DNA of 64,000 bases from an uncultured Gemmatimonadales bacterium. Lineage in GTDB: Bacteria > Gemmatimonadota > Gemmatimonadetes > Gemmatimonadales > GWC2-71-9. This document shows, piece by piece, positions 5,207 to 29,055 of this stretch (positions are counted from its first letter, which is position 1; the number at the start of each line of letters is the position of its first letter). The notes under the pieces are model-generated. The model did no database searches and had not been told where the DNA came from. It saw only the letters and a program-made list of their open reading frames with translations. The translations under genes and the position numbers were made by a program. The DNA lies in contig CAVSLY010000024.1 of the NCBI GenBank assembly GCA_963728705.1, positions 7,357 through 71,356 on the forward strand, in the 5' to 3' direction.

Positions 5207-5233
5207 GGCTGGCCCTCTACGTGACGGACATAC

Positions 5234-5262
5234 AAAAGACCCTCGCCTTCCCGGCGAGGGTC
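5234..5262 (-). terminator. Attenuator terminator upstream of ilvB
   Basis: Minus strand gaccctcgcc-gggaa-ggcgagggtc followed by tttt, about 30 nt before the ilvB start. Confidence 0.8.
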
Positions 5263-5289
5263 CCGTTGGTGATGCGTGGTTCGGGCGCC

Positions 5290-5469
5290 TTAGCGTCCGT
5301 TCCTGCGCGTCCCTCCGTTCTCCCGCCGGGAGCCGGTAATGAGCCCAAGAAGCCCATCAAGCCCAAGAAGCGAGCGAAGAAGCGCGAGGAGCGATACGTC
5401 GGAGAGCTGGTTCGGCTCGACGGGCACGTGCACGCGGCGACCGTCCGACGTCACGACGACGGCGACCAT
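5290..5469 (-). CDS. Leu/Val/Ile-rich leader peptide of the ilvBNC attenuator
   Basis: [59 protein letters not shown]; ends just before the terminator; start codon uncertain. Confidence 0.7.
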
Positions 5470-5649
5470 CCGGCGATCCTGCCGATCGAACTGGCCCAAG
5501 CTGGCCTCCAAAACACTCCATCCGCCCGGTGGGGCCCGTGCGGTCCGCGCAGTCTACCAGCCTTCGGGCATGCGTCAACGTCCACCCGATGGTCCTGTCA
5601 TCGCGGCGGCATTGCGGTTCGGGGTGACGTGCGGTCGTACCCTGCTCGT

Positions 5650-8448
5650 GTGGATCAGCCGCCCATCGTCGGACGGGAGCGGGAGCTGGCGCTGATCTTC
5701 GGCCTGGCCGAGGACGCGTTACGGCGATCGAGCCCTGCGGTCGTCCTCGTGACGGGAGACCCGGGACAGGGGAAGACGCGGTTGGTCGCCGAAGTCGCGA
5801 GGCGGACCTCGCGAGTCGAGCGCCTGCACGCCCAGGGCTTCGAGCCCGAGCGGAACGTGCCCCTCGCGGCCGCCGGCGAGATGCTCCGTCGCCTGGCGCC
5901 GCTCCACGTTCCTGCGGCTGCCAACGAGGCAGAAGTCACCGACCCGTCGATCGAACCCATCCGGATCTTCGAGCGGGCGGCTGGAGCGATGACGGCGCTC
6001 AACCCGACGCTCCTGACGCTCGACGACGTCCAGTGGGCCGACGAGCTGAGTGTCGCGCTGTGCCACTACCTCCTTCGCGCCGCGGCGAGCGCCTTGCAGC
6101 CGCTGCTCGTCGTCGTCGCCGGGCGCGACACGCCAGCGATCGCGAGATTCGCAGACGCCGTCCGCCACGTGCTGGACGACGACGCCGTGCTGTCCATCAC
6201 GCTTGGCCCGCTGGACCGAGATGCCGGTCTCACGCTGTTGCGCGCGGCGGCGCCAGGCCTCTCCGCCCCAGAGGCGGACGACGTCTGGCGCCACGCATCC
6301 GGGTCGCCGTTCTGGTTGCATGCCCTTGCCTCCGGGACCGATCGCCGCGCACCCGGTGTGGTCTCGACACGACTTCGGGGCCTCACCGACGATGCGGTGG
6401 GGCTACTCGGTGCGATCGCCGTCGTTGGTCGGCCCGTGGCGACGGCGGATCTGGCGGACCTCCTGGGGTGGCCGGCGCCGCGTGCCGCCGAGGCAGCTGG
6501 CGGCCTGACGGACCGCGGATTGGTGGTGGATCGCGACGGCGGGCTGCAGGTCGCCCACGATCTGCTCCGGGAGGCTGCCGTGGAGCGGCTGCGTCCGGAG
6601 GCGCGACGCGCGCTGCACCGATCGCTGTCCGAGCGACTGGAGCAGTCGGCTGGAGAAGACGTGGGACAGCTTCGCGAGGCGCTCGACCACCGTCGATCGG
6701 GTGGACTCCCGGCGCTGGATCTCGCCGTGCGCCTCCTTCGTTCGCCGCGTCGTCGGTGGCTCGGTCGCGACGGCCTCCACGAGCTTGCGGCGATCGTCGA
6801 CGAGGAGGCGTCAGCATCGGCCGATTGGCCCGATCTCGCGATCGCGGTCGCTTCCCTCGCGGTCGAGCTGAGCGACCACGCGTTCGCCCTGGAACGGTGG
6901 CGGCAAGTCGCCGACCGCAGCACCCTACCGTCGGCCAGGGCCATCGCGGCGCTCGGCGCCGCCAAAGCGGCGTTCGAGCTCGAGCGGGGCGGCGCCGCCC
7001 GGGAATGGATCGAGCGAGCTCGAGTCGCGGCGGCGATGTCCGTCGACCCCGCCAGGGAGGCGGCCCTCGACGCGCTCGACGCGCTCGTGCTGATCTGGCT
7101 CGAACACCGCTTGCCCGAGGGTGAGCTCCTGGCGGAGCGTGCGGCCCAGGCGGTGCGGGCCCTGATCCGTGCGGCGGGTGAGCCGCAGCGCCTCTCACCA
7201 GAGGCATGGCGCGCCACCGTCGATGCCTTACGGGCTCGCTGGGACGCGCACATCCAGCGGGAGGACCGTGTGCCGGACGCCCTGACCGAGGAGCTGCTCG
7301 CCGTCACGGCGCACGACGAAGCCGCGCATCTCGGGTCGATCGTCCTGGCCGGGCTTGCAGCCCATCCCTATTCGGACCTCGAGCTTGCGGAGGAGCGATT
7401 CCGCCTCGCCTGGAACGAGGCCAGACGGCGGCTGATCCCGGCGATCGCCGTCGACGCCGGGTTCTGGTTGGCCGTCACGCTGTTCGACATGGGTCGGCTC
7501 GACGATGCGGGGGCGGTCCTCGCCGAGGTCCAGGCGCTCGTGGCCAGGGCCGGCGACCACGGCAAGATCCGGGCGCGCTCGCGGAGCCTTCCGGACGAGC
7601 TCCGGATCGTCCGTGGCGACTGGGAGGCCGCCGCGCCGTCACTCGTGGCGGCGGCGCGGAGCGCTTCTGACGCCCATCGCCAGATCCCGTACTTCCAGGT
7701 GCTGACCAAGTGGGCTGCCCGCGTCCGCCCGACCACAGCCGTCGGGGAATACCTCGAGGCGGGGGTCCACGCCGCGGCCACCGGCCGCTGCCCCCGTTGC
7801 GCGGCGGACTTCCACCTCGCGGCGGCCCAGGCCGTGGCTCGGATCGGCGACGCTCCCCGCGCCCGACAGCTGCTCGCGGCATTTGCCGAGGAGCGCCGGA
7901 GCCCGAGCCCGTGGGCCGTCGTCCAGCGTCGCTGGACCGAGGCGTTGATCGCGCCGGGCGGTGGCGATGTCGCCGAGGTAGCCGACGAGCTGGAGCGGGT
8001 AGCGGCCGAGGCAGAGCACCTCGGACTGCTTCTCGAGGCGGCGGTCGTCCGGCTCGACCGTGCCCGTGTCCTGGGGGCCATCGACCGGGGCCGGAGTGCC
8101 GAGGCCTTCCGCGACACCGCTCGGGTTGCCGATTCGCTCGGCGCCGTCGCGGTGGGACGTCTCGCCGAGCGCGAGTTGCGAGCGCTGGGTGTGCGGACTT
8201 GGCGGCGTGGCCCGTCCGGCGGGACGGTGGGCGAGTTGACCGCCCGCGAGCTCGAGGTGGCCGAGCTGGTGGCCCGTGGTGACTCGAACCCCGAGATCGC
8301 CGAGCGCCTGTTCCTGTCGCGCAAGACCGTGGAGCGCCATGTCTCGAACATCCTTGGCAAGGTCGGCGTCCGAAACCGCGCCGAGCTGTCCGGGGTCCTG
8401 GCGACCCGGGCCGGGCAGGACCGGCCACCCGATAGCGACATCGAATGA
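5650..8448 (+). CDS. LuxR-family regulator with N-terminal AAA ATPase (MalT/LAL-type)
   Basis: IVGREREL, Walker A GDPGQGKT, Walker B LDDVQWAD, C-terminal HTH LTARELEVAELVARGDSNPEIAERLFLSRKTVERHVSNILGK. Confidence 0.92.
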   Translation: MDQPPIVGRERELALIFGLAEDALRRSSPAVVLVTGDPGQGKTRLVAEVARRTSRVERLHAQGFEPERNVPLAAAGEMLRRLAPLHVPAAANEAEVTDPSIEPIRIFERAAGAMTALNPTLLTLDDVQWADELSVALCHYLLRAAASALQPLLVVVAGRDTPAIARFADAVRHVLDDDAVLSITLGPLDRDAGLTLLRAAAPGLSAPEADDVWRHASGSPFWLHALASGTDRRAPGVVSTRLRGLTDDAVGLLGAIAVVGRPVATADLADLLGWPAPRAAEAAGGLTDRGLVVDRDGGLQVAHDLLREAAVERLRPEARRALHRSLSERLEQSAGEDVGQLREALDHRRSGGLPALDLAVRLLRSPRRRWLGRDGLHELAAIVDEEASASADWPDLAIAVASLAVELSDHAFALERWRQVADRSTLPSARAIAALGAAKAAFELERGGAAREWIERARVAAAMSVDPAREAALDALDALVLIWLEHRLPEGELLAERAAQAVRALIRAAGEPQRLSPEAWRATVDALRARWDAHIQREDRVPDALTEELLAVTAHDEAAHLGSIVLAGLAAHPYSDLELAEERFRLAWNEARRRLIPAIAVDAGFWLAVTLFDMGRLDDAGAVLAEVQALVARAGDHGKIRARSRSLPDELRIVRGDWEAAAPSLVAAARSASDAHRQIPYFQVLTKWAARVRPTTAVGEYLEAGVHAAATGRCPRCAADFHLAAAQAVARIGDAPRARQLLAAFAEERRSPSPWAVVQRRWTEALIAPGGGDVAEVADELERVAAEAEHLGLLLEAAVVRLDRARVLGAIDRGRSAEAFRDTARVADSLGAVAVGRLAERELRALGVRTWRRGPSGGTVGELTARELEVAELVARGDSNPEIAERLFLSRKTVERHVSNILGKVGVRNRAELSGVLATRAGQDRPPDSDIE

Positions 8449-8542
8449 GGGAGCTCCCCGATGAGCGCGGCATCCCGGCCGGCGCATGGTCGACCGCAGG
8501 TCGCCGGACGGCGGCCAGCGGAACCGAAAGGCAGGGATCGAC

Positions 8543-8818
8543 ATGGCCACAGGCACGACCAACCGCATCAACATCACGGCTCTCGGCACGGCGGTGGTAC
8601 TCGCCGCGGCTGCAGCGCTTGCCGGCTGCTCCGTTCAGCGACCCGGCGCGGGCGCGGACCACTCGCTCGACGCGGTCGAACGCAATCGCGCTGCGATGGG
8701 GATCCCGGCGGACACGAGCTACGCCACCGCCGAGCACACGCGGCTGACCTTCGGCCAGCAGCCCGACACGAGCTACGACGCGGTCGAGCGGCTGCGGGTG
8801 GGCGGTATCGGCCAGTGA
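8543..8818 (+). CDS. Small lipoprotein with three internal DxS(Y/L)xxxE(R/H)xR repeats
   Basis: SD-like gaaaggcaggga; lipobox LAG|C; repeats ADHSLDAVERNR / ADTSYATAEHTR / PDTSYDAVERLR. Confidence 0.75.
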   Translation: MATGTTNRINITALGTAVVLAAAAALAGCSVQRPGAGADHSLDAVERNRAAMGIPADTSYATAEHTRLTFGQQPDTSYDAVERLRVGGIGQ

Positions 8819-8841: not shown

Positions 8842-8866
8842 GGGCCGTCGGCGGTGCCGACGGCCC
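8842..8866. terminator. Hairpin terminator between convergent small genes
   Basis: gggccgtcggc-ggt-gccgacggccc (11-bp stem), followed by tttgcgttgt on the minus strand. Confidence 0.7.
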
Positions 8867-8950
8867 GTAGCTTGTGGCGCTCCTAGAGCGCGATCGGGAC
8901 TTCCCAGCGATGGCCGGCCTCGACGAAGAGAGCCGACGTCACGGCGGTTC

Positions 8951-9046
8951 TCACCACCATTCCCAGCGCATCCCGGCTCCGACGCTGAGCGCCAGGGAGG
9001 CCAGGACCGTCAGGGCCCATGTGCAACGCGCCAACTTGGCTTTCAC
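8951..9046 (-). CDS. 31-aa signal-peptide-like precursor with Trp-rich C-terminus (putative peptide signal)
   Basis: GTG start with SD aagggga; MKAKLARCTWALTVLASLALSVGAGMRWEWW; directly downstream of the riboswitch and followed by a terminator. Confidence 0.8.
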   Translation of the reverse strand: MKAKLARCTWALTVLASLALSVGAGMRWEWW

Positions 9047-9081
9047 GAGCGATCCCCTTCGTATGAAGAGTGCAATTGCTC

Positions 9082-9161
9082 GATCGGTAGCCGGGCGGTC
9101 TCCTCGCGAGAGATCCCTGGCTTTGCGTCCCCGCCTCACGACGGGTTTGCCTTTGGCGACC
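9082..9161 (-). ncRNA. c-di-GMP-I (GEMM) riboswitch
   Basis: Minus strand GGUCGCCAAAGGCAAACCCGUC-GUGA-GGCGGGGACGCAAAGCCAGGGAUCUCUCGCGAGGAGACCGCCCGGCUACCGAUC: GGCAAA..GACGCAAAGC..UACCG landmarks, GNRA loop, P1 GGUCG/CGAUC. Confidence 0.92.
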
Positions 9162-9171
9162 CATTGATGTC

Positions 9172-9285: not shown

Positions 9286-9858
9286 TCAATCGGGGAGCGG
9301 CAGGCTCCGTGCCACGGACGGCATCTGTGGCGCCGTCTTCGAGCGCATCGCCGAGACGATCACGATCGCGATCCCGAGCCCGATGATGACGTCGCCGATG
9401 CTGAAGACGTTCGCGAACGGGACCCACGTCGGAAGCGCGAAGATGTCGGTCAGGGGCGCCAGGGCCGGGTCGGCGATGAAGATGCTGTTCGAGTAGGTCG
9501 ACGGGTCGGGGGGGCCGCCCATCGCCGCCGCAGCGGCGGCACTCGCCGGCATGTAGCCACCGTTCGCGACGATCGCGGCCAGGTTGCTCGCGGCCCCCGC
9601 GGCGACCACGAGCATGCCGGTGATCCCGCGGTTGGCCACGATCGCCGCGATCACCGCGGCCGTCGAGGCCACGTAGATCGGCGGCCCGAGGGCGCCGATG
9701 CGCTCGGTCACCGGATCGGAGAACAGCACGATCTGGATGAACAGGCCGCCGACGATGACCCAGGACCAGCGAAGGTGCAGATCGGCGAGACCAGCTGGGC
9801 GTCCGCCCACCAGGAAGCCGACGACGAGGCCGATCAGGACGGCATAGAGGATGAACAC
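9286..9858 (-). CDS. DUF5317-family membrane protein (putative LspA-like aspartic peptidase)
   Basis: Multi-TM; GGRPAGLADLHLRW, GAASNLAAIVANGGYMP, PLTDIFALP, NVFSIGD; strong SD aaggaaggt before GTG. Confidence 0.8.
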   Translation of the reverse strand: MFILYAVLIGLVVGFLVGGRPAGLADLHLRWSWVIVGGLFIQIVLFSDPVTERIGALGPPIYVASTAAVIAAIVANRGITGMLVVAAGAASNLAAIVANGGYMPASAAAAAAMGGPPDPSTYSNSIFIADPALAPLTDIFALPTWVPFANVFSIGDVIIGLGIAIVIVSAMRSKTAPQMPSVARSLPLPD

Positions 9859-9877: not shown

Positions 9878-12557
9878 TCAGCTCGCGAGCGGGTCGGCGG
9901 TCCGCGCCGCCGCGGGCCACCGGTCGGCCGCGGTGCGCCGCGGGCCCAGGAGCGGCCGGCCCTCGGCCAGGATCGCCGTCATGTCGCCGGCCTCCTGCGG
10001 TCGTGAGAGCAGGTAGCCCTGACCATACTCGCATCCCAGCTCGTGTAGACGGCGGAACTGCCCGGGTTCCTCGATGCCCTCGGCGATGATGGTCAGGCCG
10101 AGCGTGCGGCCCAGGGCCACGATCGCCCCGGCGAAGGCCCAGTCCTCCTCGCTCTCGGCCGGCCCGATGAACTCGCGCGCGATCTTGAGGATGTCCACCT
10201 GGAACCGGCGCAGGTACCCGAGCGACGAGTAGCCCGGTCCCGAAGTCGTCGATGGCGATGCGGACCCCGAGCGCGCGGATGGCCTCGAGGCGGGAGATCG
10301 TCGTCGGCGGTGTCGTGGAACATGACGGTCTCGGTCATCTCCAGGACCAGCTGCCGGGCGTCAGCCCGGTCTCGATGAGGATGGCCTTGAGATCGTTGAC
10401 GAACGTCGGCTCCTGGAGCTGTTGCGCCGACAGGTTGACCGACATCGTCAGCAGCTGGCCGGGCGGGCCGATGGCGGACCACGCTGCCGCCTGTCGGCAA
10501 GCCTCCGACAGCACCCACCGGCCGAGCGGCAGGATCATGCCGTTCTCCTCGGCGAGAGGGACGAACTCGCTCGGGCCGATCAGGCCGCGAACGGGATGCC
10601 GCCACCGCACGAGGGCCTCGACGCCCGTGACCCTCGCCCGGGCAGCGAAACGATGGGCTGGTAGTACACGGCCAACTCGCCCGCGCCCAGGCTCCTCGAC
10701 AGCTCAGCGCTCAAGGCATGGCGCTCGACGATCGCCGCGTGCATCGTCGGCTCGAACACCGACACGCGGTTCTTGCCCGACGCCTTGGCGGTGTACATGG
10801 CGACGTCCGCGTTGCGAAGCAGCTCGTCGGCCCGCTCCGTCCCGAGCCGTGCCGCGGCGATGCCGATGCTGGCTCCGACCGTGGTCTCGTGCCCGTCGAC
10901 GGAGAACGCCGCTCGCATCGATTCGATGATGCGGTGGGCGACCGCCTCGGACTCGGACAGGCCGGGGTCGTCGTCGAGCAGCACGGCGAACTCGTCGCCC
11001 CCGAGCCGGGCCGCCACGTCATCCGTTCGCAGCACGGTCCGCAGTCGCGATCGCGACGTCCGCGAGGAGTCGGTCGCCGGCGGCGTGGCCGAGGGTGTCG
11101 TTGACGACCTTGAAGTCGTCGAGGTCGAGGAAGAGCACGACCGGCATCTTCTCGCTGGGATGCCCGATCCGGTCGACCACCTTCTCGAGGAACAGGGTCC
11201 GGTTCGGGAGGCCGGTCAGCGGATCGTGGTACGCCTGATAGCGCAGCTGCTCCTTCAGCCGGGAGAGCTCGGCGAGCGACTGCTCGAGGTGGCCGTTCTC
11301 GAGGGCGACCGCCGCCTGGTTGGCGAGCGTCTCGAGCAACCGCAGGTCGTCCTCGCTGAACATCGTGCCTTCGGTCAGGCGATTGCTGATGATCAGCGAG
11401 CCGATCGTCTCGGACTCGCCGCGCAGGGCGCTGACCATGTGGCGCGACACGCGACCGTTGGGGTCGTGGGTCTCGTCGAAGAACGGGCCGCTCGACGCGC
11501 CGATGCGCTGGTGGAGCGGGTCGTCGATGTAGTCGCGGTCCGGGACCATCACCTCGGGCTCGCGTTCGTGCCACGACCGGGTCCGGAGGGCATCCCCGTC
11601 GCCGGCGCGCGGGTACAGGACCACCTCGGCGAGCTCGGCGCGGAACATCGTGCGGGCATGGCTCAGCAGCGCCACCAGCGTCGAATCGAGCTCGGGCGAG
11701 TGCTGCAGGATCCGCGACGACTGGTAGAGCAGCTCGAGGCGCTCGTGCTTCTCGCGCTCGGACACGTACGCCTGGTACGCCAGGAAGACCATGACCAGTG
11801 GAAGGACCAGCAGCCAGAGCAACATCGGGTTGAGCCACAGGGCGGCCACGGCCAGCAGGGCCAGGCTCGTGTTGGCCAGGGCGACCATCAGTCCGAACTG
11901 GATCATCTCGGGCAGCTTCCGGAACTGCGGTGCACCGCCGGAGAGGGTGATCACGGTCGCGATCGTGATCGAGCTGATGATCGTCGCGGTCGAGGTCGCC
12001 GCGAAGGCGGCGACCCATTCACGGATGCCGGGCACGCCGACCCGCGGCACGAGCGACGAGACGATCGTGTACGACACGACCGCGATCAGGGCGAAGTTGG
12101 CGAGGTTGAAGGCGATCTTGATCGGCCGCTGCGCCGAGGCGAACAGCATCGCGGCGGCGGAGCCGGTGAGCACGGCGATGAGGTAGTCGGGCGGCGACAG
12201 GAAGAACAGGCCGATGACCGCGGGGAACTCGCTCAGCGAGAACGAGTGGGTCTCACGCCGGAAGTGGACCTCGACGACCTTGAGCTCCGCCACGGCGAAG
12301 GCCAGGGCCAGGACCGGCCACGGAACGTTGAGTGGCGCTGAAGGGACGGGGACGTCATGGAGCTGCGCGAAATAGATCGCGAAAGCCACGAGCGCGAGCA
12401 CGAGCGTGAGGCCCCACACCCGGGCGACCGCCGGGATGGTGGATGCGCCGGCCTGCAGTCGATGCGAGGTCGATCCGTCGCGCAGGCGATGCGTGATTCG
12501 CCCGCGGACGTGGTTCGCTCGGCCTCGGTCCGAAATCCCCCGGATCCGAGTCGACAA
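9878..12557 (-). CDS. Membrane-sensor GAF-GGDEF-EAL protein (diguanylate cyclase/phosphodiesterase), several frameshifts
   Basis: About 6-7 N-terminal TM helices, GAF ([22 protein letters not shown]), [52 protein letters not shown]; start (TTG) approximate. Confidence 0.93.
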
Positions 12558-12804
12558 GGTGATGCCGCCCCCTTGGTGTGTTCGCGTGAGGGAAGGTGGT
12601 GACTGGGACGGTTGTACCCCCCTGAGCCGCCTTCTGCGCACACCCGGAGGTACTCCGGGCGATAGGACTATCGGTGTACCGCGGTGTCGTGCAGGCGCTC
12701 CCGGACGACGATCGGGACCACCTCGCGACAGGCGGCGCCGGACCCAACCCCCGTCCGCTGGTAGGCTGGCGGCCTCATCCGACCCCGTGGAGATCCGCCG
12801 CACC

Positions 12805-14269
12805 ATGACCTCGAGCCAGCCCGTCACCGCCGCGTCACCGCGCACCATCGTCGAGAAGATCTGGACCGACCACGTGGTCAGCCAGGACCCGGGTTCGCCG
12901 GCCGTCCTCGCCGTCGACCTGCACCTCGTCCACGAGGTGACCTCGCCACAGGCCTTCACGGGCCTCCGCGAGCGTGGCCTCAAGGTGCGCCGGCCGGCGC
13001 AGACCGTCGCGACCGCCGACCATTCGATCCCGACGACGCCGCGCAACCTGCCGATGCTCGATCTGCAGGCGGCGGCGCAGATCGGCCAGCTCGAGCAGAA
13101 CTGCCGCGACTTCGGGATCCCGCTGCACGGGATCGGATCACCGTCCCAGGGCATCGTCCACGTCATCGGCCCGCAGATGGGCCTGACCCAGCCCGGCATG
13201 ACGATCGTGTGCGGCGACTCGCACACGAGCACGCACGGGGCGTTCGGGGCGCTCGCATTCGGCATCGGGACGAGCGAGGTCGAGATGGTCCTCGCGACCC
13301 AGACCCTGCTCCAGCGCGACCCGAAGACCTACGAGGTCCGCATCGATGGCCGCCTCGTTCCCGGCGTGAGTGCGAAGGACATCATCCTCGCGCTGCTGGC
13401 TCGGATCGGGGTCGGTGGCGGCACCGGGCACGTGTTCGAGTACCGCGGCGAGGCCATCCGCGCCCTGACCATGGAACAGCGCATGACCATCTGCAACATG
13501 AGCATCGAGGGCGGCGCCCGCGCCGGGCTCATCGCCCCCGACGACACGACGTTCGAATACGTGCACGGCCGGCCCTACGCACCGCACGGCGCCGCATGGG
13601 ATGCCGCGCTCGCGCGCTGGCGGCGAGCTGCCGACCGACGACGGCGCCACCTACGACAAGTCGATCACCATCGACGCGAGCGCCCTCGAGCCGATGGTCA
13701 CGTACGGCACGAACCCCGGCATGGGCATCCCGATCACGTCGCGCGTCCCGTCGCCCGCCGACGAGCGCGACCCGGCGGCGAAGCGCGCATTGGAGCGTGC
13801 CCTCGAGTACATGGACCTGCGCCCGGGCCAGCCGATCATCGGCCAGAAGGTCGACGTGGTGTTCGTCGGCTCGTGCACGAACGGCCGGATCAGCGACCTG
13901 CGGCTCGCGGCCGCCGCGCTCAAGGACCGCCACGTGGCCGATGGCGTCCGACTGATGGTCACGCCCGGCAGCGACGAGGTGAAGCGCGAGGCCGAGGCCG
14001 AGGGCCTGCTCGAGATCTTCAAGGCGGCCGGCGCCGACTGGCGCGAATCCGGCTGCTCGATGTGCATCGCGATGAACGGCGACCAGCTGCAGCCCGGGCA
14101 GTACGCCGTCAGCACGAGCAACCGCAACTTCGAGGGTCGCCAGGGCAAGGGCGGTCGGACGTTCCTGGCGTCGCCGCTGACCGCCGCGGCCTCGGCGATC
14201 GCCGGCGTCGTGACGGACCCGCGGACGCTGCCCGGCATCGAGACCCTCGCGGCCGTCGGCGGTCGCTGA
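12805..14269 (+). CDS. leuC: 3-isopropylmalate dehydratase large subunit (frameshift near 13620)
   Basis: [54 protein letters not shown]. Confidence 0.97.
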
Positions 14270-14272
14270 GCC

Positions 14273-14898
14273 GTGGCCGAGCCGCTCCGGATGTTCACGA
14301 GCAAGGTCGTGCCGCTGCACGCCGAGAACGTCGACACCGACCAGATCGTGCCCGCGCGCTACCTCAAGGTCACCGACAAGGCGGGCCTCGCCGAGGCGCT
14401 GTTCCGCGACTGGCGCTTCGAGGAGGACGGCTCGCTCAAGGACCCGCCGTTCGTGCTGGACCGGCCGGGCATGGCCGGGCGCGCAGATCCTGCTCGTCGG
14501 CGACAACTTCGGCGCCGGCTCGTCACGTGAGCACGCACCATGGGCGCTGACCTCGTGGGGCGTCCGCGCCATCTTCTCGACCGGCTTCGCCGACATCTTC
14601 CGCAGCAACAGCCTGAAGAACGGCGTGCTGCCGATCGTGGTCACGCCCGAGATCCACCAGCGCCTGTGGGACATCGTCGAGCAGGACCCGGAGGCGAGCT
14701 GACGGTCGACCTGGCCGAGGAAGGCGTCCTGCTGCCGGACGGATCGACGATCGACTTCGAGATCGACCCATTCGCGAAGCGGATGCTGCTGGCCGGGACC
14801 GACGAGCTCGGCTACCTTCTGTCGAAGGAGGCACGACATCGAGGCCTGGGAGGCCGCGCACCCGCCGCGGGTCGATACGCTCGCCGGGAGCGCGCTGA
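14273..14898 (+). CDS. leuD: 3-isopropylmalate dehydratase small subunit (frameshifted; end approximate)
   Basis: [60 protein letters not shown]. Confidence 0.93.
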
Positions 14899-26390: not shown

Positions 26391-27665
26391 ATGCGTCGAC
26401 CCGACTACGACCGCCGCGTCGTCGTCACCGGCCTCGGGGTCATCAGCCCCGTCGGCAACGACAAGGACACCGCCTGGTCGAACCTCGTCAATGGGGTCTC
26501 CGGCCTCAAGGCCATCACGTATTTCGACACCACGCCGTACGAGGCCAAGGTCGCCGGGGAGGTCCTCGGCTTCTCGGCCAGTGACTGGATGGATCCAAAG
26601 GCCGCCCGCCGCAGCGAGTCGAGCATGCACTTCGGCGTCGCGGCGGCGAAGCAAGCGCTTGCCGACTCCGGCTTCGAGCTGACCGACGAGAACCGGACCG
26701 AGGTCGGCGTGGTGTTCGGCTCGGGCGCTGGCGGCCAGCAGCTGATGATCGACAACTACGCCTCGCTGCACGCTCGTGGCCCCCGGACCGTCGCGCCGAC
26801 GTTCATCGCGAACGCCCTCGTGGACAGCTGCTCCGGGATGATCGCGATCGAGACCGGCGCCATCGGGCACAACGTGTGCATGGTGTCGGCGTGCGCGACC
26901 GGTACGCACAACGTGGGCGAGGCCGCAGAGGCGATCCGTCGCGGCGACTGCATCGCGGTCATCAGCGGGTCCACGGAGGCGCCGCTGCTCGAGGTCGCGC
27001 ATGCCGGATTCTCGAACATGCGCGGGATGGGCCTGCCCCGTCCAGGCGAGCCGTTGGCGACCGTGTCGCGGCCGTTCGACGCGACACGCGACGGGTTCGT
27101 GCTCGGCGAAGGGGCCGGGTCGCTCTTCCTCGAGGACCTCGAGCTCGCGAAGGCGCGCGGTGCACACATCTACGCCGAGGTCATCGGCTATGGCTCGGCC
27201 GCGGACGGCTGGGACATGGTCCAGCCGATCGATGCCGGCGTGGGGTCGGCGCGCGCGATGCAGATGGCGCTCGATCGCCGTGGCGTGCCGGCCGACGAGG
27301 TCGACCTCATCAACCCGCATGGCACTTCGACCCCGCTCGGCGACAAGCGCGAGGCCGAGGCGCTCCACACGGTGTTCGGGCCGCGCGCCGCGCGCGACGC
27401 CCGCTCGCTGGCGATCAGCGCCACGAAGTCGATGACCGGGCACATGATGGGCGCCGCGGGCGCCTTCGAGGCCTACGCGACGGTCATGTCTGTCGCCGAG
27501 CAGTGCGTGCCGGGCACCCTCAACTTCCGCGACGCCGACCCCGAGTGCGACCTGTGGGTCGATCCCGAGACCCACTCCTTCCCGATCCGCCATGCCCTCT
27601 CGAACAACATCGGGCTCGGCGGCCACAACGGCGCCGTCATCTTCAAGCGCTATGACGGTGACTGA
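26391..27665 (+). CDS. fabF: Beta-ketoacyl-ACP synthase II (copy 1)
   Basis: RRVVVTGLG, SACATG, NPHGTST, KSMTGHMMGAAG. Confidence 0.9.
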   Translation: MRRPDYDRRVVVTGLGVISPVGNDKDTAWSNLVNGVSGLKAITYFDTTPYEAKVAGEVLGFSASDWMDPKAARRSESSMHFGVAAAKQALADSGFELTDENRTEVGVVFGSGAGGQQLMIDNYASLHARGPRTVAPTFIANALVDSCSGMIAIETGAIGHNVCMVSACATGTHNVGEAAEAIRRGDCIAVISGSTEAPLLEVAHAGFSNMRGMGLPRPGEPLATVSRPFDATRDGFVLGEGAGSLFLEDLELAKARGAHIYAEVIGYGSAADGWDMVQPIDAGVGSARAMQMALDRRGVPADEVDLINPHGTSTPLGDKREAEALHTVFGPRAARDARSLAISATKSMTGHMMGAAGAFEAYATVMSVAEQCVPGTLNFRDADPECDLWVDPETHSFPIRHALSNNIGLGGHNGAVIFKRYDGD

Positions 27666-27786: not shown

Positions 27787-29055
27787 GTGCCCGAACAGGA
27801 TCCCGCGCGGCGCGCGGTCATCACCGGCCTCGGCGCGGTCATGCCGATCGGCAACGACTTCCCGACGTACTGGGCCAATCTCCGGGCCGGGGTCACCGGG
27901 ACCCGGACGATCCAGAGCTTCGACGCGTCCGATCACGAGGTCCGCATCGCCGCGGAGGTGCTGGACTTCGACCCGCGCGAGCACATGGACGCCAAGATGG
28001 CCCGGCGCATGAGCCGGTTCATCCATTTCGCGATGGCCGCCGGCAAGGAGGCCATCGCCGATTTGGGGATCGACTTCGCCGCCATGACCCCGGAGCAGCG
28101 CGACCGGGTCGGCGTCGTCGTCAACACCGGCGGCGGCGGGATCGAGCAGATCATCGATGGGACGCACGTCCACGACAGCCGCGGCCCGAGATTCGTCTCG
28201 CCGTTCGCCGTCCCGGCCCTCTCGGGCTCGATGGGCGCGTGCATGCTGTCCATGGAATTCAGCCTGACCGGCCCGGTCATCACCCAGGTCGCCGCCTGTG
28301 CCACGTCGGTCATCGCCTTCCACGACGCGCTCCGGCTCATCCGCGACGGCGAGTGCGACGTCGTCGTGACCGGTGGCACCGAGGCGCCGATCTGGCCGAT
28401 GGGCGTGGCCGCACTCGCCAACATGACGGCGCTGTCCAAGCGCAACGACACGCCCGAGACGGCCTCCCGGCCGTTCGACGGGACCCGCGACGGCTTCGTC
28501 CTCGGTGAGGGCGCCGGCGTCGTGGTGGTCGAGTCCCTGGCCCACGCCCGGGAGCGCGGCGCCACGCCGATCGCAGAGATCCTCGGCGGCGCACTCACGG
28601 CTGACGCCTTCCACATCAGCGCCCCCGAGCCCAGCGGCCGAGGCCAGACACGGGCGATGACGAATGCCTTGCGGAACAGCGAGGTCGCCCCGGACGAGAT
28701 CGACTACATCGTGGCGCATGGCACGGCCACGCCACTGAACGACGTGACCGAGACGCGCGCGATCAAGGCGGCGTTCGGCGACCATGCCTACAAGGTGGCG
28801 ATCAGCTCCCCGAAGTCGATGATCGGGCATCTCGTGGGCGCGGCCGGCGTCGCCAGCGCCCTCGCCGGCATCGGGGCGATCCGTGACGGGATCATCCCGC
28901 CGACCGCGAACCTGCGCACCCCCGATCCCGAGTGCGACCTCGACTACGTGCCGCTGACCGCGCGCAAGGCCAACGTCGAGACGGTCCAGGTGGACGGCTT
29001 CGGCTTCGGCGGCCAGAACGCGGTCGCGATCCTGCGCCGGGTCACGGACGGCTGA
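27787..29055 (+). CDS. fabF: Beta-ketoacyl-ACP synthase II (copy 2)
   Basis: AACATS, AHGTAT, KSMIGHLVGAAG, FGFGGQNA. Confidence 0.9.
   Translation: MPEQDPARRAVITGLGAVMPIGNDFPTYWANLRAGVTGTRTIQSFDASDHEVRIAAEVLDFDPREHMDAKMARRMSRFIHFAMAAGKEAIADLGIDFAAMTPEQRDRVGVVVNTGGGGIEQIIDGTHVHDSRGPRFVSPFAVPALSGSMGACMLSMEFSLTGPVITQVAACATSVIAFHDALRLIRDGECDVVVTGGTEAPIWPMGVAALANMTALSKRNDTPETASRPFDGTRDGFVLGEGAGVVVVESLAHARERGATPIAEILGGALTADAFHISAPEPSGRGQTRAMTNALRNSEVAPDEIDYIVAHGTATPLNDVTETRAIKAAFGDHAYKVAISSPKSMIGHLVGAAGVASALAGIGAIRDGIIPPTANLRTPDPECDLDYVPLTARKANVETVQVDGFGFGGQNAVAILRRVTDG

Follow-up and report, generated by a model that had tools for sequence, protein, structure and literature searches.

DUF5317, a possible divergent relative of LspA in a c-di-GMP cassette with a riboswitch and mini-peptides

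Within the 64,000-nucleotide window, i.e., the whole stretch of DNA analysed here, lies a gene for a member of DUF5317, a large uncharacterised family for which, as DUF5317 or as PF17248, no mention was found in the literature searched. Our preferred explanation is that the protein is an LspA-type aspartic peptidase, very divergent, not devoted to lipoproteins but part of a c-di-GMP cassette with peptides as its substrates; taken whole, the explanation has in our estimate a probability of about 0.45. The protein belongs to its family, has two invariant aspartates at the outer face of a five-helix membrane domain, and has LspA (signal peptidase II; MEROPS A8, PF01252; structures 5DIR, 6RYO and 6RYP) as its best structural match. 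Downstream of it are a riboswitch and a very short open reading frame with the signatures of a coding sequence, in a gene order that is conserved. Homology to LspA, catalysis and the identity of the substrates are what we infer. The features concerned are:

9878..12650 (start approximate), minus strand: gene for a membrane-anchored (TM) GAF-GGDEF-EAL protein, with Pfam GAF, GGDEF and EAL matches on separate ORF pieces
9286..9858, minus strand: DUF5317 gene, 190 aa, with a GTG start, a Pfam match and a GC3 of 0.92
9082..9160, minus strand: c-di-GMP-I-GGC riboswitch aptamer as identified by Rfam (RF03167), scoring 69.1 bits where 59 is the gathering score (E 7.8e-16) and covering the whole model, 1-80
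8951..9046, minus strand: sORF1, 31 aa, GTG start, MKAKLARCTWALTVLASLALSVGAGMRWEWW, from its Shine-Dalgarno (SD) sequence, codon-position entropy and alignment A5
8883..8960, minus strand: sORF2, about 25 aa, MVVRTAVTSALFVEAGHRWEVPIAL, start codon uncertain, from an AG-x-RW motif as in sORF1
8842..8866, minus strand: intrinsic terminator hairpin (11 pairs, 10 of them G-C) and then TTTGCGTTGT, closing the riboswitch-sORF unit

The DUF5317 product matches its Pfam profile over positions 2-151 of 151, scoring 93.2 bits where the cut-off is 25 (E 2e-26), and all 57 aligned relatives likewise match that profile. A Shine-Dalgarno-like AAGGAAGG precedes the GTG, which is 19 nt past the end of the EAL reading frame. 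As to the contig (C24) itself, its GC is 0.696 and its tetranucleotide correlation with the rest of the genome 0.992, and its mis-binning is visible by gene identity only, being invisible in composition.

The sequence-only reading had drawn attention to a multi-TM protein with the strings GAASN, LTDIF and NVFSIGD, and with two aspartates 18 residues apart. All are present in the 190-residue frame, as G88-A-A-S-N92, L136-T-D138-I-F and N150-V-F-S-I-G-D156, and D138 and D156 are indeed separated by 18. Whether both are invariant, a check it had proposed, can be answered from the family: among the 150 best cluster representatives, all 132 that cover its column have D138 and all 126 that cover its column have D156, and in an alignment (A1) of 57 diverse relatives the invariant residues comprise D138, D156, S153, G155, P147, P104 and N76. 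The full-length AlphaFold model (pLDDT 91.7, pTM 0.85) has five membrane helices, at residues 2-16, 32-45, 48-74, 82-98 and 154-172, with an outer loop of 55 residues, 99-153, between the last two. D138 is on a strand of that loop and D156 at the start of the last helix, and by the positive-inside rule both are on the outer side of the membrane.

How like LspA is this? The LspA motifs cited in the sequence-only reading, together with a similar spacing of the aspartates, agree with 27 LspA sequences (alignment A2), where the invariant residues include G111, A112, G114 and N115, then V126, D128 and F129, and then F142, N143, A145 and D146; the aspartate spacing is 18 in that alignment (D128, D146) and 19 in the P. 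aeruginosa chain. The two families thus have in common a penultimate helix with G-A-x-x-N, a loop strand with D-[FI]-[FI], a last helix starting x-x-[AG]-D-[IV]-x4-G and a pair of aspartates on the outer face with a spacing of 18-19. There are differences too. DUF5317 has one helix more than LspA, five instead of four, its N-terminus is outside, and the two N-terminal helices have no LspA counterpart and carry neither an LspA TM1 nor a beta-cradle motif. The D/K motif of LspA TM1, the YNxGAAFG of the beta-cradle and the D-R after the Asn are all missing: the A2 invariants D28 and K32 (TM1), N59 and G61 (N-x-G of the beta-cradle) and D118 and R119 (after GAxGN) have no evident counterpart, and no Lys or Arg is invariant in alignment A1, which also holds nothing like YNxGAAFG. 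Unlike LspA, DUF5317 separates the Asn from the first Asp by an insert of 33 residues, in which N-G-G-x-M-P is a further invariant motif. A canonical LspA coexists with DUF5317 in five of five genomes, and the candidate substrates of DUF5317, unlike those of LspA, are without a lipobox Cys.

A model of residues 45-176, i.e., the three C-terminal helices and the loop, was built with no templates and no LspA sequences (pLDDT 90.4). Compared by VIA with 48161 PDB representatives, it has two LspA chains at ranks 1 and 2, namely 5dir_A (Z 6.1, rmsd 3.0 A over 92 residues, 15% identity) and 6ryp_A (Z 5.9, rmsd 3.0 A over 89 residues, 18% identity), followed by the next row at Z 5.4 and rmsd 5.1 A; no other structure in the list has so low an rmsd or so high an identity as LspA. 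In a second VIA comparison 6ryo_A gave Z 6.6 and 5dir_C Z 6.5, the latter with an rmsd of 2.7 A over 92 residues. All these Z values are below 8, as is often the case among helical proteins, and in the wide search LspA leads the rows that follow it by less than 1. Foldseek, which the sequence-only reading had put forward as a check, places LspA at ranks 1, 2, 3, 5 and 6 among 350542 chains when given the 45-176 model (best E 1.1, probability 0.54, TM 0.49), but with the full-length model it returns nothing at E up to 0.001, 6ryp being at rank 17 with E 10. With the full-length model LspA is 9th and 11th in VIA too, below a designed helical barrel (Z 7.0). The VIA alignment pairs 1-127 of the 45-176 model with 57-158 of the chain, and counting back along the last helix from those ranges D156 falls on Asp143 of P. 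aeruginosa LspA, by a numbering that was checked; the catalytic dyad of that enzyme is named in PMC9360617. From the rmsd of 2.7-3.0 A over 89-92 aligned residues, the side chains of D138 and D156 may adjoin in a groove facing the membrane, as expected of an LspA-type enzyme.

No statistic comparing the sequences of DUF5317 and LspA reaches significance. The Pfam model for Peptidase_A8 (PF01252) scores the protein at 11.5 bits, below its cut-off of 25 (E 0.36), and is matched at E up to 5 by 5 of the 57 relatives, being nevertheless the sole second Pfam family matched by more than one of them; none of the 57 matches the NCBIfam lspA models, and other NCBIfam matches are scattered and weak (a Na+/H+ antiporter subunit E in 4 of 57). 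Profile alignment by hhalign gives P 0.001-0.005 and a probability of 7-20%, covering the last helix alone, where VFSIGD-x5-G, with D156, is aligned with FNVAD-x5-G, which holds the second catalytic Asp of LspA. In the low-confidence extensions of the hhalign alignment the GAASN of DUF5317 does not come opposite the GAAGN of LspA, and global mode, relaxed gaps and cut-down alignments yielded no confident alignment past the last helix. Because hhalign is confident over that helix at most, the DUF5317 Asn equivalent to LspA Asn112 is left unassigned. In a genome HMM search of 20197 ORFs LspA is at rank 71 for the DUF5317 profile and DUF5317 at rank 47 for the LspA profile; phmmer against PDB sequences gave noise (best E 0.72, a sugar kinase), and the ESM Atlas search no usable match. 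The proposal that DUF5317 is a divergent intramembrane peptidase of the LspA type is partly supported, by the invariant aspartates on the outer side, the top structural rank in two programs and the hhalign pairing of D156; the structural scores are modest, the sequence scores are sub-threshold and the N-terminal half differs.

What lies downstream had been taken, in the sequence-only reading, for a 62-aa precursor on which the peptidase acts. That ORF is not the gene. It was mis-delimited because its first half is the c-di-GMP-I-GGC riboswitch at 9082-9160, and the real genes are those of 31 aa and about 25 aa. Judged by its sequence, the element between DUF5317 and sORF1 is a member of the c-di-GMP-I riboswitch clan (CL00126). 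Among 80 related loci, gathered with a 17-sequence DUF5317 alignment, RF03167 or the canonical c-di-GMP-I aptamer precedes sORF1 in 52; besides the element of the window, those of eight other loci were scored, at 44.9-61.9 bits for RF01051 or RF03167. The sORF1 product has a basic N-terminus, a single hydrophobic helix and an invariant A-G-x-R-W end. Six nt ahead of its GTG is GAAGGGGA, inside a hairpin in the minimum-energy fold, and an SD-like purine run of the GGAG/GAGG type is closely upstream of the GTG or ATG in 44 copies; the entropies at its three codon positions are 0.52, 0.34 and 0.91. The stop of sORF1 is overlapped by sORF2 (ATGGTGGTGA), and many related loci have a paralogous second peptide with an EAG[HQR]RW end. 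The terminator is a single site where 0.2 would be expected from shuffles. On the other strand a 97-aa ORF (plus, 8874-9167) was dropped as a gene, its GC3 being 0.69 against 0.87-0.96 for the neighbours, and it overlaps the riboswitch and sORF1. The string V-G-A-G/M, which had been likened to a lipobox, is present in sORF1, but it resembles one only a little: at position -3 there is Gly where a lipobox has Leu, Val or Ile, and in 37 copies (alignment A5) the residue after G-A-G is M, I, L or F and never the Cys of a lipobox +1 position (0 of 37).

Upstream, the GAF-GGDEF-EAL gene is in this assembly broken into four or more reading frames, with ORF pieces at 11019-13265, 10580-11035, 10335-10610 and 9878-10198, and relatives have intact orthologues of 875-1469 aa directly upstream of DUF5317. 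A GGDEF-EAL protein both makes and breaks c-di-GMP. The order of the cassette is TM-GAF-GGDEF-EAL, DUF5317, riboswitch, peptides; in related loci of Chloroflexota with the upstream GAF-GGDEF-EAL gene, DUF5317 is accompanied by the riboswitch and an sORF in 30 of 30, and exactly one strong copy of sORF1 is found per genome in five of five genomes, each time beside DUF5317. A few loci have DUF5317 paired with a peptide of the sORF2 type and neither riboswitch nor GGDEF-EAL. The AG-x-RW peptides are limited to the clade of the window, occurring in 2 of 30 diverse Chloroflexota loci, which counts against the preferred explanation. A predicted complex of DUF5317 with sORF1 scores 0.36 (three runs, 0.35-0.37), the best of three controls being 0.00, and the runs share at least 68% of contacts with a partner pLDDT of at least 62. 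In calibration 58 of 80 solved complexes came up to the 0.36 mark, as did 2 of 110 mismatched pairs, but scores of 0.60 or less were those of only 7 of those 80 solved complexes and of both passing mismatches; the prediction lends weak support to the pairing.

The family is much wider than the cassette, with 2583 cluster representatives at E up to 0.001, presence in 92 of 301 sampled Chloroflexota genomes, and members also in the Thermus and Thermotoga control genomes, and its other contexts bear on what else the protein might be. Could it be a non-catalytic membrane module of c-di-GMP systems, a sensor, an anchor or a docking partner of the peptides or of the membrane domain of the enzyme, with an Asp/Asn-rich outer site that binds a ligand and with the peptides as small-protein regulators? 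In P0149 DUF5317 is the N-terminal membrane part of a GAF-GGDEF protein, a fusion that speaks for such a module and counts against a peptidase insofar as it equally fits a sensor or anchor. Enzymes of c-di-GMP adjoin DUF5317 in two clades, GAF-GGDEF-EAL being 30 of the 51 upstream proteins scanned in the one, and HD_5/HD-domain proteins (12) and GGDEF-EAL (2) adjoining it among 30 Chloroflexota loci in the other. The weak complex signal of 0.36 fits binding and cleavage equally, and C. difficile provides a precedent in class I c-di-GMP riboswitches that drive small membrane-associated regulators, as described in PMC13724677. However, that two acidic residues, a Ser, a Gly and several Pro do not vary at all through 126-132 representatives is more typical of an active site than of a docking surface, and LspA as top match with the aspartate pair in register would have to be coincidence or relic. 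We hold a module of this kind to be rather unlikely.

The aspartates and their Asn and Ser companions might instead be a cation or substrate site, DUF5317 being a subunit that binds ions or solutes, or else serving MFS exporters as an accessory. Fusions of DUF5317 with MFS_3/MFS_1 occur in both orders (P0169, P0178, P0215, P0230, and a 678-aa frame in G018), about 31 matches in the Chloroflexota sample are within open frames of 612-753 aa, and in the same 30 loci separate MFS_3 genes are neighbours in 4 and AI-2E transporters in 3. The stand-alone 190-aa form has only five helices, however, and no transporter fold is among the structure matches; a transport role is the least probable of the readings considered here. 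Peptidase-containing ABC exporters make a peptidase fused to an exporter a known design, and because of this the MFS fusions fail to separate transport from proteolysis. A more radical doubt is that the likeness to LspA is chance or convergence, arising from a common three-helix arrangement and short motifs, and that DUF5317 is an unrelated envelope enzyme or structural protein. Every score is sub-threshold, a Z below 8 is common, and the LspA hypothesis arose from the same motifs that drive the weak sequence scores. Against this, the family was named beforehand, has just three solved entries in the PDB searched, and came first in two structure programs, with the lowest rmsd and highest identity, to a model in whose making neither templates nor LspA sequences had a part. 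We regard chance as improbable, less so than transport. A second Chloroflexota clade pairs DUF5317 with proteins like RiPP precursors of the NHLP clan (8 of 8 match NF038399), a context that, like the fusions to MFS exporters, speaks for a peptidase. What tells against one is that NHLP-type proteins have no export signal, whereas the aspartate pair faces outward.

If DUF5317 is an LspA-type peptidase, the last three helices and the outer loop would form a core like that of peptidase family A8, with D138 and D156 in the place of the catalytic pair at the outer face of the membrane. The level of the AG-x-RW peptides would be set by c-di-GMP via the riboswitch. The peptides, tiny and resembling signal peptides, would be membrane peptides whose helix is bound in an LspA-like groove and cut near G-A-G/M. 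A stronger reading, to our minds unlikely and a shade more so than the non-catalytic module, is that DUF5317 represents a new family of intramembrane LspA-type peptidases maturing lipid-free mini-precursors, so that a peptide feedback or cell-to-cell loop operates in c-di-GMP signalling. The riboswitch would then gate precursors of 25-32 aa, DUF5317 would cut G-A-G/M-R-W, and the freed C-terminal peptide, or the leftover membrane helix, would feed back on the GAF-GGDEF-EAL enzyme; sister clades might use NHLP-type precursors and MFS exporters likewise.

Why should this matter? The LspA type of protease is known from one essential enzyme, a target of antibiotics. Should DUF5317 prove to be of that type, it would be a second branch of the protease family and would connect c-di-GMP signalling with intramembrane proteolysis or the handling of peptides. 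Independently of what DUF5317 does, the cassette, with its four parts (the enzyme, DUF5317, the riboswitch and the mini-peptides), offers directly testable genes for a riboswitch variant class.

Known systems offer parallels of design. In LapD/LapG a membrane protein that handles c-di-GMP is encoded with a protease, LapG being a periplasmic cysteine protease, and in exporters of ribosomal peptides a leader peptidase is fused to or beside the exporter, the C39 domains being cytoplasmic. To both LapD/LapG and the peptidase-containing exporters the DUF5317 cassette is an analogy of design, the protein families being unrelated. A further parallel is the CD1980.2 family of C. difficile (PMC13724677), whose members have 58 aa, occur in multiple copies, are confined to that species and have a link to sporulation. 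The present cassette would carry the idea of small membrane proteins under riboswitch control, a recent finding in C. difficile (PMC13724677), over to an unrelated phylum. Both systems have a class I c-di-GMP riboswitch directly before a gene for a tiny membrane-associated protein that annotation had missed. Unlike the CD1980.2 family, the sORF peptides are of 25-32 aa, single-copy, with an AG-x-RW end and always encoded beside DUF5317 and a GGDEF-EAL gene, the two sets being compared by description.

Is the membrane protein DUF5317 a divergent relative of signal peptidase II, LspA? The sequence-only reading took it to be an LspA-like intramembrane aspartic peptidase, and the motif strings on which this drew (G88-A-A-S-N92, L-T-D138-I-F and N150-V-F-S-I-G-D156, with 18 residues between D138 and D156) are all found in the product of 9286-9858. 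That product matches DUF5317 in Pfam with E 2e-26, and the GC3 of its gene resembles that of coding neighbours. The gene and the elements that adjoin it are:

9286-9858, minus strand: DUF5317 gene, an intact 190-aa open reading frame that starts with GTG; GC3 0.92
9082-9160, minus strand: c-di-GMP-I-GGC riboswitch aptamer (Rfam score 69.1 bits, gathering threshold 59, E 7.8e-16)
8951-9046, minus strand: sORF1, 31 aa, GTG start, ending AG-x-RW
8883-8960, minus strand: sORF2, about 25 aa, overlapping the sORF1 stop, ending AG-x-RW
8866-8842, minus strand: strong terminator, 3' of sORF2

Across 57 diverse relatives, selected by length (172-215 aa) and coverage out of 150 cluster representatives, N76, P104, L133, D138, P147, S153, G155 and D156 are invariant and N92, N99, G100, G101, M103 and N124 nearly so. 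When all 150 representatives were aligned to the profile, the invariance of the two aspartates held (D138 in 132 of 132 and D156 in 126 of 126 covering the column, the others being truncated there). The LspA motifs were checked in an alignment of 27 sequences from 30 loci (L026 was excluded because its genome is flagged unpublished, L013 and L032 because of odd-looking N-termini): G111, A112, G114, N115, V126, D128, F129, F142, N143, A145 and D146 are invariant, as are D118, R119 and G152. The Asp spacing is 18 in that alignment and 19 in P. aeruginosa LspA, where D124 and D143 (native numbering) are the catalytic dyad according to PMC9360617.

By sequence the resemblance of DUF5317 to LspA is faint. 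Peptidase_A8 comes second among the Pfam matches of the window protein (E 0.36; 11.5 bits, cut-off 25) and is matched by five of the 57 relatives, no other second family being matched by more than one; the NCBIfam lspA models match none of the 57. Profile-profile comparison (probability 7-20%, P 0.001-0.005) aligned the last helix, pairing V-F-S-I-G-D-V-x4-G of DUF5317 with F-N-V-A-D-I-x4-G of LspA, and not the remainder; forced extensions had near-zero confidence and did not pair GAASN with GAAGN. An unfiltered HMM search of the 20197 six-frame ORFs of the genome placed LspA at rank 71 with the DUF5317 profile and DUF5317 at rank 47 with the LspA profile. Such scores point in the LspA direction, yet they are below significance, and they are not independent of the motifs from which the LspA idea arose. 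Tests of A8 membership were negative, so DUF5317 is classed outside A8, as a possible LspA-like variant: by current definitions it is not an LspA/A8 member, and it may work in an LspA-like way. The terms 'DUF5317' and 'PF17248' were found in no paper of the library searched; one metagenome pipeline calls a relative, P0077, 'lipoprotein signal peptidase', so an automatic hint of the likeness already exists.

The full-length AlphaFold2 model, built from the 57-sequence alignment with no templates, is confident (pLDDT 91.7, pTM 0.85), with helices at 2-16, 21-26, 32-45, 48-74, 82-98 and 154-172 and, at 99-153, a loop with short strands. Foldseek gave no match for it, and in VIA-align, among 48161 entries, the two representatives of LspA came 9th (Z 5.3) and 11th (Z 5.1), below a designed helical barrel (Z 7.0). 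For residues 45-176 modelled alone (pLDDT 90.4), LspA is the top match in both VIA and Foldseek. VIA gave 5dir_A at Z 6.1 over 92 residues (15% identity) and 6ryp_A at Z 5.9 over 89 residues (18% identity), both with rmsd 3.0 A, the row below LspA having Z 5.4 and rmsd 5.1 A. A repeat structural comparison gave 6ryo_A at Z 6.6 and 5dir_C at Z 6.5 (rmsd 2.7 A, 92 residues). All LspA values are in a range common among helical proteins, and rows no more than 1 Z unit apart are to be taken as tied. Among 350542 chains Foldseek put LspA at ranks 1, 2, 3, 5 and 6 (best E 1.1, probability 0.54, TM 0.49). Even with such values, both methods put LspA, a family named beforehand, at the top for this predicted structure, and no other entry of the list has so low an rmsd or so high an identity. 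VIA aligned model 1-127 with chain 57-158, 92 residues against about 90 non-insert ones; from these ranges, rather than from a residue list, the D138 strand would be within the aligned set and D156 would lie on Asp143 (P. aeruginosa) or Asp136 in the S. aureus chain.

What might such a protein act on? The adjacent 62-aa 'precursor' (8951-9139) proposed as substrate turned out not to be a single gene; the stretch overlaps the Rfam riboswitch aptamer and takes in sORF1. Just 3' of the aptamer is GAAGGGGA, and the GTG of sORF1 follows 6 nt further. Both mini-peptides are unannotated, and the unit under the c-di-GMP-I-GGC riboswitch adjoins DUF5317. Comparative evidence argues that sORF1 is a real coding gene: its 44 copies all have an SD-like purine run just 5' of the start (GTG in 42, ATG in two), and codon-position entropy is 0.52/0.34/0.91. 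The 37 aligned copies have 28-32 aa, a basic N-terminus, a single hydrophobic helix and an invariant A24-G25-x-R27-W28 followed by 0-4 variable residues. The supposed lipobox resemblance of the G-A-G site is weak, position -3 being Gly and Cys following G-A-G in no copy.

A pattern scan of species-representative genomes yielded 80 related loci (78 labelled Chloroflexota-type MAGs), the DUF5317 proteins of which are 51-75% identical to the window protein. A simple GC3-based gene caller called the DUF5317 gene at 61 of them, and 51 of 60 upstream ORFs were scanned with Pfam, nine of less than 125 aa being dropped. GAF-GGDEF-EAL was found in 30 of the 51 (28 with all three domains, one cut at a contig end, one without an EAL match), in 29 cases on the same strand and 2-36 nt upstream of DUF5317. 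The AG-x-RW mini-peptide occurs at 57 of the 80 loci by a loose pattern, the riboswitch at 52 (strict pattern, plus Rfam on 13 pattern-missed loci), and both are present at all 30 GGDEF-EAL loci. At five loci (L055, L058, L063, L097, L103) an sORF lies directly 3' of DUF5317 without an Rfam riboswitch; at L055, L097 and L103 the scanned upstream ORF is not GGDEF-EAL, so DUF5317 and peptide can occur as a pair by themselves. Searches with sORF1 gave a single strong match (E 2.6e-12 or better) in each of five genomes, every time within the DUF5317 locus. Just beyond the cassette is a large regulator (5221-8448, plus strand; 1075 aa, AAA_16 and GerE (LuxR-type) domains). The convergent 110-aa ORF at 8486-8818 (plus strand) begins with what reads as a classical lipoprotein signal, closed by a true lipobox, A-L-A-G-C; it has no Pfam match, and at the DNA level the stretch is about 70% identical to its nearest counterparts among the related loci (L040, L034, L038, L037).

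The contig does not seem to belong in its genome bin and looks like a case of mis-binning. Its FabF-like gene (26391-27662, plus strand) is 89-96% identical to those of cassette-sharing Chloroflexota MAGs, which have the same gene order, and 41-45% to the bin's own genus; genome G093 keeps it at the same distance from the cassette. A search of 200 further genomes from the bin's phylum turned up no DUF5317, and GC content and tetranucleotide usage gave no sign of a foreign contig. The LspA gene on contig C10 of the same bin may thus be another organism's, and the co-occurrence claim rests on the Chloroflexota genomes with DUF5317, five of five of which also encode canonical LspA; DUF5317 is therefore an additional protein, no substitute for LspA. 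Three tallies, including the FabF comparison and a 301-genome sample, each contain one genome flagged unpublished (G089, G003, G461), on which no claim depends. The GGDEF-EAL gene (9878-13265, minus strand) is broken into pieces in four or more reading frames, and a change of frame is also seen in leuC (aconitase family; about 12800-14300, plus strand); as GAF-GGDEF-EAL orthologues in relatives are intact, assembly indel errors are likely, more so than pseudogenes. A second FabF-like (ketoacyl synthase) gene (27787-29052, plus strand) is in tandem with the first at about 42% mutual identity, and the pair also occurs in related Chloroflexota genomes.

DUF5317 is present in 92 of 301 sampled Chloroflexota genomes. 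At the best-scoring 30 of these loci (61 of 92 called ORFs scanned), AG-x-RW peptides and GGDEF-EAL each occur at two, a BTAD regulator at 13, an MFS_3 transporter at four, and at 12 an adjacent HD_5/HD-domain protein (database label 'HD domain'), which we take to be an HD-GYP type c-di-GMP phosphodiesterase. At eight a 90-110-aa protein lies directly downstream, and all eight match NCBIfam NF038399, 'Os1348 family NHLP clan protein', a RiPP-precursor-like family. BTAD regulator, DUF5317, NHLP-clan protein (Os1348 family, Frankia_peptide-like) and HD_5/HD-domain protein form a second conserved cassette in other Chloroflexota (L119-L123, L126, L132-L134). One representative (P0149) has DUF5317 fused to GAF-GGDEF, and fusions to MFS_3-type transporters, in both orders, are frequent (L003 in genome G018, P0169, P0178, P0215, P0230); in the 301-genome sample, the open frames that contain about 31 of the matches are 612-753 aa long. 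Another representative, P0266, has a PemK-like domain. From neighbours and fusions, c-di-GMP enzymes, small ribosomal peptides and exporters are recurrent themes.

Those exporters bear on a transport-related role, which we consider improbable. The c-di-GMP theme bears rather on a non-catalytic peptide- or ligand-binding module in c-di-GMP signalling, for which there is precedent in C. difficile, where, according to PMC13724677, class I c-di-GMP riboswitches control small-protein regulators; with the Asp pair invariant among the aligned representatives, we hold this unlikely. Chance likeness to LspA would accord with the non-significant sequence scores, is to be set beside the first place of LspA by two structural methods, and seems improbable. 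Prediction of a DUF5317-sORF1 complex, with alignments for both chains, gave weak support, with a score of 0.36 (three runs 0.35-0.37; best of three controls 0.00). Of solved complexes 58 in 80 attain that mark, and of mismatched pairs two in 110; only seven of the 80, but both passing mismatches, score at most 0.60. At least 68% of contacts agree between runs, with partner pLDDT at least 62, and the output names no interface. The odds of an interaction are raised slightly; on cleavage the prediction is silent. Tentatively, with a probability of about 0.45, we favour the reading in which DUF5317 is an aspartic peptidase of a divergent LspA type, with membrane peptides that carry no lipid as its substrates, acting on, or regulated by, the riboswitch-controlled sORFs in this clade.

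The N-terminal half of DUF5317 differs from that of LspA. TM1 and the beta-cradle of LspA are replaced by the N-terminal two helices, the LspA-invariant residues of that part having no counterparts in DUF5317, and between the Asn-bearing helix and the first Asp there are 33 inserted residues, among them an invariant motif particular to the insert, N-G-G-x-M-P. Lys and Arg cluster in loops 17-31 and 75-81 and in the C-terminal tail of DUF5317 and are scarce in loops 46-58 and 99-153, so the predicted topology is N-terminus out and C-terminus in, with D138 and D156, like the Asp pair of LspA, on the outer face.
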